NCBI GenBank assembly: GCA_951406725.2
Contig: OX597832.1
Span: forward strand, 64,728,001 to 64,792,000
Length of the DNA: 64,000 nucleotides
Reading direction: 5' to 3'
Origin: Octopus vulgaris
Lineage: Eukaryota
Made by a program: the position numbers and the translations under genes. Below the pieces are notes generated by a model. That model was given only the letters and a program-made list of their open reading frames with translations. It was not told the origin of the DNA and did no database searches. Below, one piece after another: positions 1-35,073 of the stretch. The stretch's first letter is position 1. Every line of letters begins with the position of its first letter.

Positions 1-1049
1 ATATATATATATATATGAATATATATGCATAAAGTTACATATATGTGTGTGTGCGTGTGTATTTGTGCTTTGGGAATTTAGTAAAGCGTTATGACGATAG
101 ACGAGGTATCAACTGAGTGGATTTTGAGGAAATGGAAAATAATAAAGCACCAAATATGGAAAGTGAGAAAACCATGAAGAAATAATGGTAATCAGAATGA
201 CATACTGGAATAAATGATTGCGATGCTGTGTCAAAACTAGGAGACTAGGTGATAGATTATTTATACATATACTTCTCTCTCTCTCACACACAAACATATA
301 TGTACACACACACGCCGATATACAGATGTATATATATATATGTACACACACACATATATGAGTTCATCTATATACACATATATATACATACACACATAAA
401 AATATACTCACACACACACACAGTGTATGTATACAGAAAGATTGGGTGTAGCAGAGATTGACAAAGAGGAAAAGAGAGATGGTGAAGTGAATAAGAGATT
501 CTGTCGCCTATCAATGAAGACAGATTTGAGATAAATGTTAAAAGTGACAATACAAACAGAGCACAAGATTCATTTAACTATTTTCTTATTATCAATATTT
601 TTCTTTCTCTTTTTCTTTCGTAAAATGAACAATTGCTTAAAACGTATTGTATTATTTGGTTTTTCATAACAACATCAGCAATATTAACTGCAACAGGAGT
701 AAAAGCACAAGAACACCATAAAAAAATACAAACAAACATATCCGAGAGCAATAATAGCCATGACAATAGAAGCGTCGACTAACTTCACAAAAATTTCCAT
801 TTGAAAAATGAGATACAAATCTGTGTAATTTATTCAGTGTAAAGTAGACATTGGTATTCAGGTAAGTAAAATATGCTGACAGTTATTTTGTTTTCATTAA
901 CGCATTGTTTTCTATAAGTATTTTTGTCTGTAATTTACAATGCTTTGTAATTATAAGGAAGTTCGCATATTCTTCTTAAAATTACTATTTGTAAAATAAA
1001 TAACAAAGATGATAACAAAGTAATTATACTTTAGACATTCTCTTTCCAT

Positions 1050-28934: not shown

Positions 28935-30939
28935 AAACAGTGCTTATCTATGTATGTATAGTTTTGAACCTCGAAATATTTCTGAGCAAATGCTGAATGG
29001 CGTTAAAAACTAATTGGGATCTTCATTCATGTCATGATTAAATATAACACCAAGCAATATCAATTTTCCATTTGCTTGGAACTGATGTTCATTTTATGGT
29101 ATTTGGATGTATGTCAACAAATCTGATATATTTTTCCCTATCCTTCTCCGTAATTTCTAATACATTTCATTAAGATAAGTATATTCAAAGTCATTATTGA
29201 CGTGTTGGGTGCAACAGAAATAATAATTTCATTTTATTGCCTTGTGGTCTCCTGGAGCTCTTTCACAAATTCATAATGTTTATAACTATGATTGTGGCGT
29301 TATTTAGGCAAACTTTATGTACATAAACACCAGGCCAGGAATTTCTATTGCTGTTGTCAAACACCCAGTACGAACCACCATCCGGCACTTAATTTCACAT
29401 TTTGTAAGCGACATCTATAATTTTAAACAACTGTTGTTTCGTAAGAAATTACGCCATGCGTATATGTTTGTATCTGTGTGTGTGTGGATGTAACGTCGAT
29501 ATTTTTAAATTCGTTACATGAAAGACTGATCTCATTGTAGACAGATTCAAGAAGGAATACGGGCAGTTACAATAAAATAATGAGAACTTCTGTTCGATGT
29601 GGAAAAATAAAAGTAGGAAGATAGGTGGATGCCGAAAGTATGAGTACGAAATAAACTGGGAGTATACTACTCATTAAAGAAAGGAAAATGAAATATTATA
29701 TGTTGAAGATGAGAATATGTCAGAAGTTTATTTCGAGTTTCATGTTTCCGATTTTCTGGAGTCATATACAGACTAAGATTTTCTTAAGATTTCTGGTGCG
29801 CGCCCCCGCACACAATATACATATATAACATTCAGGTAGTTAAGTTTTTACTTCACCTTTAAAAAGACAAATCAGACCATACAAGCAAAATTTTACGATA
29901 ATCATTTAAAACTTAAAAACCAACCATGCATAACTTCCTACTTACTTAGATAATGTAGTTACAAACACACATACACACATACACACACAAACGCACACGC
30001 ACGTTTACTTTTTAAAGCGCGACAACTCAGTAAAGCAGACTATATATATTTTATTCAGTATGCTATCGAAATAAACTGAAACACACACACATATATATAT
30101 ATGTATATATGTGTGTGTGTATATGTATATACATTTTGTGTGCATGTGTGTGGGTGCGTGTGTGAATCTGTGCGTGTGTGCATTTCGGTTTTAACACTGT
30201 ATGTGCCTAAGTACTTAAACACATTTGATGGTATAAAATTCTTTAAAATCACCAACAGTTATTAGCTAACACGGTAGTAAAAGCAAAGCAAAACAAAAAA
30301 CAAAGAAAAAACCCGAAATCGACTACATCGAAGCAAATAAAACTTGTGTTTTTGTAGTTTCTTTTTGTTTTTTGCTATATTCACAGCTAATCCGAGTTGC
30401 TATAATATCAACCATTGGTGTAAACCAATAGAAACGAAAAATATAAAAAAAAAGAGAGAAAGAAAAAATACGCACAAAATATCAAAAAAGAAAAAAAAGA
30501 CGCAACTATTCTGTAAAGGGCTACATAATAATGATAATAATAATAATAATAACAAAAAGTAAGCATAATGTAATTGCTATTGGTCTTTTTCATCGTTTAT
30601 TTATTAGCTGTCATCACCAGTTACTGGAAACGTTCACACGAATTTTTTCTCTCGCTTGAGGTCACGCAGACTGAAGTACATTTTTAAAGAACCGATTAGG
30701 TAATCGTTCCAACATTTCATCACATATGATGTTGTAACGAAACTAGCTAAAAAAGAATAAAGGTAATATTGAAATGGGAAAGCAAGCGTGAGTGAGTCGA
30801 TTCGGTAAAACAGGAATTTAGAAGCTTTCATACGTGAAGACTTTTCTCTATATAACCTCGTTACTAAACTGACAATCGGAGTTCAAATTCAGCAGAAATC
30901 TTGATACCAATATCGTTTTTATCTCTTCATCAGGTTCTT

Positions 30940-30979
<40 letters not shown>

Positions 30980-31000
30980 TGTGTGTATGTGTGTGTGTGT

Positions 31001-31041
<41 letters not shown>

Positions 31042-31058
31042 TGTATATGTATATTCTT

Positions 31059-31430
31059 TATTCGTTTTGTTTCAGTCATTTGACTGCGGCCATGATGACG
31101 CACCGCCTTTAGTCAAATAAATCGACCCCGCAGTACTTATTCTTTGTAAGCCTAATACTTATTCTGTTCGGTCTCTGTTGCCTAACTGCTAATTTACGAG
31201 GACGTAAACACATCAACATTGTTTATCACGATGGTGGGGGAAACAGGCACACACACTCCCACACATATTTACGACGGGCTTCTTTCAGTTTCCGTCTACC
31301 AAATCCACTCACAATGCTTTGGTCGGACCGAGACTATGGTAGAAGTCACCTGCCCAAAGTGTCATTCGGTGAGACTGAACCCGGAACCATGTGGTTGGGA
31401 AACGAGCTTCTTACCGTACACCTACGACTG
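31059..31430 (-). mobile_element. SINE family A
   Basis: Collinear with 61664-62092. Confidence 0.9.
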
Positions 31431-31449
31431 CGTCAATATATATATGTCA

Positions 31450-31657
31450 GTGTTTGTTTTCAATCACCATTTGTCAACCAGTGTTGGTGTATTTACGTCC
31501 CTACAACCTAGCCATTGGGCAAAAGAGGGTGACAGGTTAAATGCTAGCATAAGAAATTAAAAGCACTGTGTTCGATCTATACGACTAAAGATTTTCCAAG
31601 GCAGTACTCCAGGATGGCCGCAGTCTAATGAGTGAAACGAGTAAAAGATAAAAAGAT
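31450..31657 (+). mobile_element. SINE family A 3' half, inverted relative to its neighbour
   Basis: tttacgtccc...gcaaaagag...ggatggccgcagtctaatgagtgaaacgagtaaaagataaa. Confidence 0.8.
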
Positions 31658-31667
31658 GTTTACATAA

Positions 31668-31717
<50 letters not shown>

Positions 31718-31729
31718 TATATAGAAGGA

Positions 31730-31778
31730 GCTTCTACAGGACTAGTACTGTTTCATTCAAGAGAAATCTTCAGGAAGC
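31730..31778 (-). ncRNA. Type I hammerhead ribozyme, identical inverted copy
   Basis: Exact reverse complement of 31790-31838. Confidence 0.78.
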
Positions 31779-31789
31779 CTGAAGATTTT

Positions 31790-31838
31790 GCTTCCTGAAG
31801 ATTTCTCTTGAATGAAACAGTACTAGTCCTGTAGAAGC
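31790..31838 (+). ncRNA. Type I hammerhead ribozyme
   Basis: gcttc (stem I) CTGAAGA t-ttc-tctt-gaa-t (stem II) GAAA cag-tactagtc-ctg (stem III) TA gaagc (stem I'). GUA triplet, predicted cleavage after A31833. Confidence 0.8.
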
Positions 31839-31922
31839 TCCTTCTATATAATAAATTAATTTTACTCTGCTATGTATTGAGTACCTTACTTACTGTGGTT
31901 AACCCCGAATCAACCCGGGACC

Positions 31923-31970
<48 letters not shown>

Positions 31971-32455
31971 AGTGTGTGTGCACGCGCGCTAAGATGGACC
32001 TATCGCAATGTTCACAGACAAAAGGGATGTCTGTGAGGTTGTCAATTGGTATACATGAGATCAGGAAAAGCCATTCTGAAGAAAATCACGCCATGGAAAC
32101 TTACTTAAACGATAGGAGCCAAGATAGAAATGGAGGGGGCAATCAAGTAAAAAATAATTGCAACCAACGATGTGTAACCACATAGCATAATGTGGTCAAT
32201 ATAGGTGATTATACATTATGTTACAAAGTTCTACATGCACGAATGAATTCTAAACAATAGCTGAAATTTAATCAAAAGCTCTCCGTCTCAACCTATCATA
32301 CAATCTATTTATTATTCTGTAGAAGCCAGCTAACCATAGAAAATTTTAGCGGTAACTGTATGAAACCGGAATGAACTCAAATATACCACTGTCTAATCAT
32401 GGCTTTGCTGCCCGAAACTTCGAAGTCACTTTCAACGCTATACTTTTTAAAGACA

Positions 32456-32502
<47 letters not shown>

Positions 32503-32509
32503 AGACACA

Positions 32510-32567
<58 letters not shown>

Positions 32568-32569
<2 letters not shown>

Positions 32570-32640
32570 CGAGGGGAAGATGAAAAGTTATTGGCTTTAA
32601 GAGCGTCGGGAAGGGCCTGTTTGGAGGCCCAATTTTACCC
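32568..32640 (+). mobile_element. Mariner-MITE left end, same family as 13633
   Basis: tacgaggggaagatgaaaagttattggctttaag...ggcctg.ttggaggccca. Confidence 0.65.
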
Positions 32641-33099
32641 AACGTCAGGAACCCCACAATATCCGCGCGCGTGTGTATCGCAATTTTTTAAAATTAAAAA
32701 ATCTTGGTATTCCTTTTTCAAATGTAATCATCTATAGAACATTAGTGAGAAGAGATCGATATAAATATAAAACGAAGCATAGGTTTATAGTTTAATATGT
32801 GAAAAGGCAATAATTTGGATTAAGATGAATTATATTTAGATTTGTGTGTCGTCACCCGCACCGACAGGCACGTAACTGTGTATAGCTGTATAATTAAATG
32901 TACTCGAGGACAGTAGATCCTATATTCATATCTATTAGACTTAATTTGACGTCTATTAAAATCTACGAATATAAATTACATTGTTTTCTGCTTCTTTAAA
33001 TGCCTGAGTGCAAATATATTTACTTTTCTCGGGCAAAATGGCATTGCGCATTCACTGACATTAAGTTTCTAAATTTATTACACTCATCACATTACAGGA

Positions 33100-34220
33100 C
33101 ACACATTGACATCTAAGTACCCATCTCATGACGTTGGTCTCTATCGAGTCGACGGTTTAGGTATCTCCCATGGATGTGACGGCTATGGATGTGATAACCC
33201 TAATCCTCGACAGATTTAGAAAACAACTTATTTCTACCTTCAGTCAATTAGGCCTTAAAATTACAATAGCTACTAATCTGTCTACAGTTGATTTGCTTTT
33301 TATGATTCCATAGACCTGAACTCCTCCCCTTATGAAACTTTCCATAAACCTGATGAGAAACTCGCCTATATACACAAACAATGTTGTCACCCACCTGTAA
33401 TATTTAAAAATCTGATAGCTAATATTAGTAACAGTGTCTAACCTCTCTTCCTTTAAAGAAATTTTCGAGAAAGCAGCCCCCTGCTATAATAATTCCCTAG
33501 CCAATAGTCAAAGATAAATTGATATATAATCCCTCTCATATTAATCAGAATAATAATGATAGACCTAGTGGCATAAAAGATAAAGTGATAGATAACCCCT
33601 CTAATATTAATCAGAATAGTAATTGTAAACCTAAAAATAGACTGAGGAAAAATATTTGGTTCGCCCCACCCTTTGGTCTTAATGTAAAAGCTAAAATAGG
33701 TAAAATATACCTGTCCTTCCTTGGCAAACATTTTCCAGCAACTCACAGATACAGGAAAATATATAACAGGTCTTCCGTGAAATTATTATATAGCTGCTAC
33801 CGCAATATGAAGCGTGTCACTACATGCGGTCAACAGCAAGACCTAAATGTCTAGACCCAGTATCCTGTTCATTTTACCAGCAATGTATGATTAAATCTGT
33901 CGCATATGAGGAAAAAGTTACTGCAACGCTACATGAAAATACAACCGATATGAAGATCTATATTGGACTGCGTAATGAATAATTTCAAAATCGCTATGCT
34001 AATCACATAGCTTCCATCCGACATAAGGACAAAAGCAAAGCTAGCCACGTATGGAGTTTAAAATCTAACGCAACACCACTTTCAATTAAGCGGAAAATAA
34101 TCGAAAAATCCACACTATGTAAATGGATCAAATAAATGTGAATTATTCTTAGCTGAAAGAGCTCAGATCCTTTTCAGATTTAAGTTCTCTAACTCACTAC
34201 TGAGTTCTAGATTTGAAATA
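33100..34220 (+). mobile_element. Decayed Penelope-like retroelement (RT C-half, thumb, GIY-YIG), probably Naiad-type
   Basis: GLYRVDGL at 33136-59 (YRDD mutated), LGLKITIATNL, HKPDEKLAYIHKQCCHPP, RKNIWFAPPFGLNVKAKIGK...KHFP...LYSC, YIG at 33959-67, NRYANH, NKCELFLAE. Stops and frameshifts throughout. Confidence 0.9.
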
Positions 34221-35073
34221 TAATCAATCCAATCTCTGGGTTACCTGACAACAAAAGACCAGCGATAAACATGAGCCCACCGATATTCACTGCAAATTAA
34301 CAAACTTTCATGTTTGGCAAAAATATCGTCATTTTCCAGTTATTTATGTCAATGCATTTTTGCCAAAAACTATCTCTAGGAGATGGATTAGATATTGTGG
34401 ATTAAAGCAGTTGAAGATAATTGAGTTGAGTGAAGGAGTTCATTGCAGAAATGTTAATAGTTCTTGCGTAGATAAGCATAGATAGCACCACCATCACCAC
34501 CACCATCTACTCCTCCTGTATTACTACATTGACTACCATTTTGAAAGATTGCCAGAATAATTAAAGTATCGGAAGGCATTGATATCTCATTGGTTGGATT
34601 TTAATCCCGTCTAAGGTAACTTTGATTTTCTTACTTCCGGGGTCGATAATATACGGAACTAGTCATCAAGTCCTAGGCTGGAACTAATCAATAACGACAT
34701 CCGTCCCCCTCTCTCTCTCCTTCAGTACTGTCAACTTCTATTTCATCTTTCGTTGTTTCCAAACTAAAAACCCATAAAGCTGCATTGACGGAGTTGTCAG
34801 AGCTTGAGTTAGGTTTGTTTCTTCTCAGTGCCTTTTGAGTTCAAACCGGGCCATCTGTCATTGAACTAAAACACCTAACCGCTTCACACAGACTTCTGTC
34901 GGGAGATGCATGTGAGGGATAATATTTGGAACTGAATAAAAAAAAAAAGAAAAGAAAAGAATTGCGAAATCGAGCGCATTGCAACATTGTTTATGGAAGC
35001 TGAGTAATATCCGCTGTTTGTTGTGATCGGAATGTGTTTACTGTATAACTACCTTGTGTAATGTAACAAGAAT

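Follow-up and report, generated by a model that had tools for sequence, protein, structure and literature searches.

Paired hammerhead motifs in an octopus microsatellite and the copy ends of a young Penelope-like element family

Several hallmarks of the insertions left by Penelope-like elements (PLEs) are already in print: inverted 5' copies, tails and targeting of (TA)n have been described for the Hydra clade (PMC8557442), hammerhead pairs on opposite strands for other PLEs (PMC4209133), and two start sites of reverse transcription for the anole element Poseidon (PMC11167929), each in the portions of these papers that are drawn on here. In Schistosoma, dual hammerhead motifs lie on opposite strands at distances of 100-700 bp, and the circular-template model set out in the same portion of that paper predicts that cleaved and religated RNA serves as the template (PMC4209133). 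In vitro, as described in the part of the Poseidon study used here, uncleaved RNA was the dominant template and the hammerhead was inactive without protein (PMC11167929). With regard to promoters, the relevant passages of two further papers place a putative TATA box and an initiator in a rotifer pLTR (PMC3846280) and, in D. virilis, a TATA-less internal promoter, with upstream copies contributing the promoter (PMC2377424).

Here, we analysed a stretch of Octopus vulgaris DNA of 64,000 nucleotides (64 kb, hereafter the window), in which a sequence-only reading had picked out twin hammerhead ribozymes in a fold-back structure inside (TA)n. That this feature is a by-product of a PLE we regard as nearly certain, and we consider it probable that it is a two-armed, 5'-truncated insertion of a young Hydra-clade PLE in (TA)n, made by twin priming on one capped, uncleaved RNA. 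The source family matters in its own right, with thousands of young copies that record steps of PLE transposition, and it bears on the origin of inverted ends, on the template (sense or antisense, cleaved or uncleaved) and on the reason why tandems are needed.

The window locus and its source family

Element positions are numbered from +1, the A that opens the native stem I; the window arms begin at +2, and A+45, after which the cut is predicted, corresponds to position 31833. The perfect 67-bp inverted repeat named by the sequence-only reading was recovered as the longest perfect inverted repeat, with a loop of 11 nt between its arms (Table 1), and it folds at -115 kcal/mol (z ~ -22), a value that 0 of 200 shuffles equalled. 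The one-sided 69-nt tail and the (TA)n flanks, (AT)20 on each side, were likewise borne out. Two starts at +2 are joined in the window through a 10-nt templated insert plus a T, a similar junction insert is also found in L143, and the stub carries neither a TATA box nor an ORF. Because its junction has T, not GA, at +1, the window copy is assigned by class.

Table 1. Features of the fold-back locus, in positions of the window
Feature	Positions	Strand	Evidence
(AT)20 target microsatellite, left part	31672..31711	.	sequence
Left arm, inverted copy of element +2..+68, with priming site A at its outer end	31712..31778	-	67/67 identical to L040 unit
Type I hammerhead motif, left arm; minus-strand cut predicted after 31735	31730..31778	-	descriptor
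Junction insert: 10-nt templated copy of +7..+16, then T replacing A(+1)	31779..31789	+	sequence
Right arm, element +2..+68	31790..31856	+	inverted-repeat and unit comparison
Type I hammerhead motif, right arm; predicted cut after A31833	31790..31838	+	descriptor
Predicted 8-bp hairpin over cleavage site and 3' strand of stem I; competes with hammerhead fold	31830..31848	+	folding, probability 0.70-0.92 once RNA passes +60
69-nt tail, element +69..+137, 5' UTR between priming sites A and B	31857..31925	+	unit comparison
Small predicted hairpin, its end 6 nt short of priming site B; putative role	31904..31919	+	folding
(AT)20 target microsatellite, right part; first 4 nt also element +138..+141	31926..31965	.	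sequence

A 29-mer of the motif, allowing for <=1 mismatch, has 7,917 matches in the 2.8-Gb genome, against 0 for the reversed control, and an older subfamily accounts for 2,336 further matches. Many of the 29-mer matches form back-to-back pairs, tens of bases to 10 kb apart. The window feature is one of 874 short fold-backs of its kind, with varied junctions. In tandem arrays the unit measures 5,193 nt and comprises the hammerhead, the tail, an ATG at +183, the ORF, a 3' region of ~2.9 kb that is rich in simple repeats, and then the next hammerhead. Copy number, constant ends and ORF linkage, by which the sequence-only reading proposed to trace the feature, were all recovered by pattern searches, as the matches counted above, the ends A and B treated below, and a PLE ORF within the tandem unit. 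The ORF-linked units carry the same end repeat as the window, which upholds the PLE origin and the inverted pLTR end suggested earlier, and the window's right arm plus tail is identical at 140/140 nt to the end repeat of the ORF-linked copy L040, in keeping with the young insertion that had been proposed; by its sequence, the window copy is a member of the youngest subfamily.

The ORF is open over 722 codons in copy L258, with RWR at 47, DKT at 125, CxCx5C at 576, a GIY-YIG-like stretch at 596 (by pattern), CxxC at 676 and CxH at 704, as well as YRDD. Scoring of 7,994 candidates yielded 765 relatives, the best 120 of them at ~38-52% identity. Pfam detected neither an RT nor an endonuclease domain in the ORF protein, a PDB sequence search did not recognise the ORF, and Pfam RVT_1 matched 2 of 24 aligned relatives; the best fold matches of the protein model (pLDDT 85.5) were telomerase RTs, along with other RTs. 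The family has the traits of the Hydra clade, namely a single ORF with RT and, at its C-terminus, a GIY-YIG-type domain (GIY-YIG by pattern), DKT, CxCX5C, CxxC and CxH, RWR as a conservative change from RWK, a hammerhead in the pLTR, partial tandem plus inverted organisation, and a one-sided tail. Its 5,193-nt unit exceeds the <3 kb of that clade, a length that the portion of PMC8557442 drawn on here gives as a tendency, not as defining. Insertion is into (TA)n, where nearly all of 178 arms end.

Several further observations concern the family as a whole. Between the RT and endonuclease regions, a C-run (e.g. L040:4037-4043) breaks the frame in 79 of 100 copies among the matches listed, with 166 matches in all; by hand count, again among the matches listed, the same short C-run occurs in 75 of 100 copies, and 21 of 100 are in frame, several with an interrupted run. 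We also compared runs X1, X9, X11 and X17, as contigs only and over part of the 5,193-nt unit; the longer C-run stands at full depth in contigs of runs X1, X9 and X11 (the kind of run being guessed) and at ~15% in X17. Slippage at the C-run may leave most progeny non-coding. A chimeric insertion with normal A and B ends (L034:1333-9901 / L035, G000:C1:40703485-40713759) has a different Hydra-type ORF, with 29-42% identity in three blocks, an Asn-rich linker and its own 3' sequence, and this foreign ORF part is joined to the distal 2 kb of the source family's 3' region and its hammerhead. Finally, ~2.9 kb of cryptic (TA/CA/TG) simple repeats are carried within the element's 3' region (L040:460-3370), and as these repeats belong to the element, many apparent microsatellite tracts in the genome may be PLE 3' regions.

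Whether the fold-back is a dedicated mini-element, as the sequence-only reading had it, can be judged from the junctions. The 874 copies with constant outer ends, and the same perfect palindrome at 11 of 56 sampled junctions, are what a self-propagating non-autonomous element, MITE-like or retrozyme-like and copied as a unit, might leave, but the other junctions differ from one another and, with respect to the tail, exist as either mirror form, where a MITE would have one shared junction copied as a unit, and the window junction matches 0 of the 56. Moreover, the window feature has no promoter and no tandem unit, such as the tandem direct hammerhead units of a retrozyme, and subfamily variants track those of the long elements. 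We hold such an element to be highly unlikely, and the notion of a dedicated mini-element is given up in favour of a PLE by-product.

A second proposal was that the window copy acts as a regulatory device. A 67-bp duplex would form in any read-through RNA, and in the read-through RNA of the stub the predicted hammerhead stem probabilities are <1e-23, so that the mutual masking of the two ribozymes anticipated earlier holds in folding. A selected device, either a self-masking ribozyme switch or an ADAR/Dicer dsRNA substrate in a host intron, nevertheless seems to us very unlikely indeed, and the switch fell away on several grounds: the copy does not differ from the youngest subfamily and has hundreds of counterparts, it is without the element's TATA box, no Pfam-detectable host exon was found in the 109 of 439 window frames scanned, and across +16..+61 of 112 stub arms no more than 2 single A>G changes were counted. 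The host is an animal known for heavy A-to-I editing, and its hundreds of perfect hairpins of 60-70 bp probably supply dsRNA incidentally, but incidental dsRNA does not equal function. As it has neither promoter nor ORF, and its ribozymes are masked in read-through RNA, the window stub is most likely inert debris of a known kind.

The surroundings of the locus hold other repeats as well. A degenerate fragment of another Hydra-type PLE ORF lies at window 33501-33854 (+), with 34% identity over 95 aa to the thumb region, and the sequence at 31270-31430 and 31535-31660 is repeat-like and, we presume, of a kind with octopus SINEs, which it resembles. Similar sequence adjoins other insertions (L165, L180, L283), and its presence beside several of them suggests that (TA)n targets are often SINE-associated.

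The hammerhead motif

A type I hammerhead descriptor, run on both strands of the 64-kb window, matched exactly twice, once in each arm, in agreement with the complete hammerhead that had been claimed per arm. The motif is made up of CUGAAGA, a 12-nt stem II region opening with U.U, GAAA, a 4-bp stem III with an 8-nt loop, UA and a 5-bp stem I, and it has the conserved core of CUGANGA, GAAA and UH along with three stems. The U.U opening of stem II, noted before and seen again by the descriptor, is followed by 3 bp in the right arm and stands where a G10.1-C11.1 pair would close the stem. A stem I of 5 bp is correct for both window arms, which start one base short; the native stem I has 6 bp, with A+1 pairing to U+51. 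Rfam hammerhead models, to which the sequence-only reading had pointed, gave no match at E<=1 in 29000-35000, and the Rfam matches on the window were generic miRNA-hairpin matches only, below their gathering scores.

Folding places the motif under competition from its own downstream sequence. The monomer hammerhead (31790-31840) is a weak fold (z 0.0), and the predicted stem I probability falls from 0.999 for +1..+51 to 0.29 for +1..+72 and 0.02 for +1..+141, because in the longer RNA an 8-bp hairpin forms over the cut site. Dimerization through a palindromic stem III, as proposed, is weakly favoured by the window variant, which is near-palindromic (self-dimer -15.2 kcal/mol, vs -12.8 for the commoner variant); on the other side, the commoner loop III variant is less palindromic, so that the palindrome is kept only loosely, and a monomer can close the 4-bp stem III by itself.

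Across 30 promoter-anchored loci, recurrent variants occur only at N7, loop II and loop III (3/13 free vs 0/38 constrained positions, p 0.014). In the same loci the 5' UTR beyond the motif is nearly as invariant (4/86 positions, p 0.31), with no compensatory change, and for these two reasons selection on the hammerhead is suggested rather than demonstrated. Variation taken from one pattern search was dropped as evidence of constraint, since the pattern itself fixed most stem positions. The predicted hammerhead may be capable of self-cleavage.

Copy ends and the template RNA

At the 5' edge of the hammerhead, the joints of the 874 fold-backs fall within 25 nt, and in a sample of 56 stubs the start lies precisely at +1 for 25 A arms and 25 B arms, with 1 stub reaching upstream. 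A 4-nt palindrome at +1..+4 confounds this pile-up, and 4-nt microhomology is found at 15 of the 56 junctions; copies joined straight to (TA)n are free of the palindrome confound and are thus usable for locating the 5' boundary. Such (TA)n joints lie within 6 nt of +2 at 56 loci, vs 2 loci at -9..-22. None of the 56 retains >2 native bases upstream of +1 (by eye), and in 53 of them an inverted partner is absent within 300 nt. The base at -1 in the 33 loci that retain A(+1) is G in 24, T in 4, A in 4 and C in 1, where the element itself has T and the target offers T or A. In a hand tally of 66 loci among the matches listed, G precedes 15 of 19 starts at +1 vs 1 of 34 at +3..+12 (Fisher p 9e-9, leaving out 13 starts at +2). 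An untemplated G of this kind has been read as a copied cap in L1 and SVA, in the portion of PMC4859970 drawn on here. Seven of the 56 stem I-edge (TA)n loci read G-T-GCTTCC, and among copies with native upstream DNA T is found at +1 in 2 of ~2,380 (non-A in 4 vs A in 2,376), which suggests that the T at +1 in the G-T-GCTTCC copies is a miscopied modified cap-adjacent base.

Longer copies carry TATAAAT at -29, upstream of the first base of stem I, and the spacing from TATA to +1 is held in 29 of 30 promoter-anchored loci, with 7 of 20 spacer positions varying between subfamilies. One G-started copy runs unbroken for 1,317 nt into the ORF. At the loose ends of contigs, the consensus letters at +1 differ from the cap-G prediction in 3 of 4 runs (1-3 contigs each, agreement 0.67-1), and a joint with the predicted letter was seen in run X17 only. 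Judging from the copy ends, transcription likely starts at +1 and the template RNA likely bears a cap. A literature search with few subscription papers found no prior report of a cap, TATA and start-site footprint at stem I in PLEs. As separate observations, L145, L292 and L293 start at the stem I edge, enter the ORF and end at non-standard sites, with -1 occupied by G in L145 and L292, and with a further G-started unit following in tandem in L293; and in the coral element Hydra-2_Amil a TATA-like run is seen by eye ~31-33 nt upstream of stem I, in the part of the supplement of PMC8557442 drawn on, which hints that this distance between promoter and hammerhead may be common to the clade.

The boundary at +1 might instead be a splice junction or another processed RNA end, its G stemming from an upstream exon or from general terminal addition by RT. 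In every subfamily seen, a pyrimidine-rich stretch and then TAG lie just before +3 and resemble a 3' splice site, and an intron of D. virilis Penelope ends at helix I, according to the part of PMC4209133 used here, but no constant leader of >1-2 nt is present among the 56 junctions, G is nearly absent at the other truncation points of the tally, and the TATA box sits at the canonical distance. Such an origin of the boundary is, in our estimate, quite improbable.

At the other extremity, a tally of 178 arms from contig C1 showed that 3' ends cluster at +66..72 (site A, in the window +68) and +136..141 (site B, in the window +137), both of which end in AT-rich letters common to the target. Among 77 divergent pairs, the script scored 74 as A+B, 0 as A+A and 0 as B+B; inspection of the remaining 3 found 2 to be A+B and 1 (L145) to join B with an arm that runs into the ORF, for an A+B total of 76/77. 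The use of site B requires RNA extending beyond the AATAAA of the window. By eye, the longer arm of 21 long pairs is B in 8 and A in 5, the two being equal in 1, undecided in 6, for which collinear chaining broke down within simple repeats, and not covered in 1. The 56 loci with (TA)n at the 5' end have A as their 3' end in 28, B in 23 and another end in 5. That either arm can be longer, and that (TA)n-joined copies have either 3' end, fits independent priming from both DNA ends.

These same counts bear on self-priming, in which, from the same PLE source, the inverted arm would arise when a single cDNA or an antisense transcript snaps back on itself at short palindromes. Antisense-template self-priming has been proposed for the head-to-head repeats of rotifer Penelope with junction palindromes, in the passages of PMC3846280 drawn on, and here too many junctions fall on short palindromes and the arms nearly always match. 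Against it stand not only the arm lengths and the two 3' ends just given, but also the extra G found on both arms in L131, L145 and L156 and the position of the G mark on the sense strand, and we consider self-priming improbable.

The preferred reading, twin priming, raises the question of how many RNAs were copied. In a set of 46 pairs for which an exact 29-mer was the sole criterion of choice, both arms stop at or below +1 in 24 and both continue upstream in 21, and 1 pair (L121) is mixed, vs 23 mixed pairs expected if the arms were independent; similarly, the +34 subfamily variant is common to both arms in 26 pairs and discordant in 1. Concordance of the arms in origin and in variant points to one RNA likely copied twice, and it could also result if source loci were active one at a time or if the arms underwent conversion later.

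Most of these copies appear to derive from uncleaved RNA, given that 11 fold-backs join near the cut site vs 874 near +1. A hand tally of (TA)n junctions found ~32 loci at +37..+51, of which 5 fall precisely on +46 and 7 are ambiguous within +44..46; 5' ends are thus modestly enriched at the cut site, and some cleaved RNA may be used; by these sequence counts, cleaved RNA would be at most a minor template for short copies. In L249 (G000:C2:62516257-62516307) and L208, arms start exactly at the predicted cut (+46) with a short (TA)n spacer to the partner, making the two candidate copies of ribozyme-cleaved RNA. Single-G deletions at +46 and +49 occur in 11 and 18 of 112 stub arms (e.g. L004, L022, L141), never in both arms, and 0 of 42 long arms have them; loss of +46 on its own occurs in 1 of 53 copies without an inverted partner. 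Being confined to stub arms and never found in both, they were rejected for now as the mark of an RT crossing the ribozyme nick; they are probably hairpin read errors, and a biological cause may exist. Such one-arm deletions would also suit a palindrome made by long-read assembly, to which we give a vanishingly small chance, as contigs of run X17 break at +1, site A and site B and show the fold-back letters, and the arms have different fixed outer ends that read folding would not produce.

The steps of twin priming may then be set out as follows. Driven by the TATA box that an upstream tandem unit carries in its 3' end, Pol II would start at +1, to give an mRNA that begins with the hammerhead. 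The RT-GIY-YIG protein, probably a dimer, would cut both (TA)n strands, after which short AT-rich matches would let one DNA end prime at A and its counterpart at B, with the B cDNA displacing the A cDNA or following it. Both cDNAs would run off the cap, after 68 and 137 nt, and their ends would be joined head to head by microhomology or by end joining with a templated insert, which in the window would yield the 11-nt loop. Read-through RNAs from upstream would give rise to the long inverted copies and the promoter-bearing tandems. Tentatively, and with more doubt than belief, we further suggest that the hammerhead, lying at the very start of the mRNA, is a cap-removal switch that is held off by a built-in hairpin while transcription runs normally and would, on firing, remove the capped first 45 nt; that a dimeric RT-endonuclease takes up a single RNA and uses two obligate, non-interchangeable start sites on it, one for each DNA end; and that capped monomers yield promoterless stubs, with read-through RNAs alone rebuilding tandems. 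If true, this model would account at once for the tail of PLEs, for their inverted 5' end and for why partial tandems are needed. The cap-type G at stem I, the rule of one A and one B end, and the shared origin of the arms make sharp predictions for an in vitro PLE assay and for 5' end mapping.

Comparison with known systems

The source family is closest to the Hydra clade, including Hydra-1_Obim, as presented in the portion of PMC8557442 drawn on here, with which it shares a single ORF of ~710 aa with RT and a C-terminal endonuclease, the motifs DKT, CxCx5C, CxxC and CxH, the (TA)n target, a type I hammerhead in the end repeat, partial tandems, an inverted 5'-truncated copy and a one-sided tail; the U.U at the opening of stem II is likewise common to the window motif and Hydra-1_aJap (File S2 of the same paper). 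It differs from Hydra-1_Obim in both protein and hammerhead, judged by eye, has RWR where the clade has RWK, and reaches 5.2 kb vs <3 kb because of the ~2.9-kb 3' region rich in simple repeats. The tail has 69 nt here vs 30-40 there, and thousands of young copies are present. The start site, the cap mark and the A/B pairing seen here are not described for the Hydra clade in that portion of PMC8557442.

Like anole Poseidon in vitro (PMC11167929, in part), the family has two internal RT start sites that bound the tail, with both DNA strands probably cut and extended. The Poseidon start sites are located within the ORF, are used equally on the two strands and show no target homology; in the present family their place is the 5' UTR, 76 of 77 pairs have one of each, on opposite sides, and the sites end in AT-rich letters that match (TA)n. 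In LINE-1 twin priming, as outlined in the passages of PMC4859970 drawn on, inversions come without duplication and priming is from the poly(A) tail, whereas here both primers are internal, so that the same 5' segment is copied twice, head to head.

Placement in a pLTR, low predicted stability and a palindromic stem/loop III are features that the motif has in common with the minimal type I hammerheads of metazoan PLEs, in the part of PMC4209133 drawn on. Unlike those, its stem III has 4 bp with an 8-nt loop and can close as a monomer, it has no G10.1-C11.1 pair, and a downstream hairpin is predicted to block the fold. The circular-template model of the same paper may account for long copies, but it cannot explain stubs that end at +1 with a G. 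Animal non-LTR retrozymes, finally, are also non-coding, with a type I hammerhead, and derive from PLE end repeats, according to the part of the preprint used here (bioRxiv 10.64898/2026.07.22.740005); they are tandem direct repeats with a hammerhead per unit, whereas the window holds a head-to-head pair and no repeat unit.
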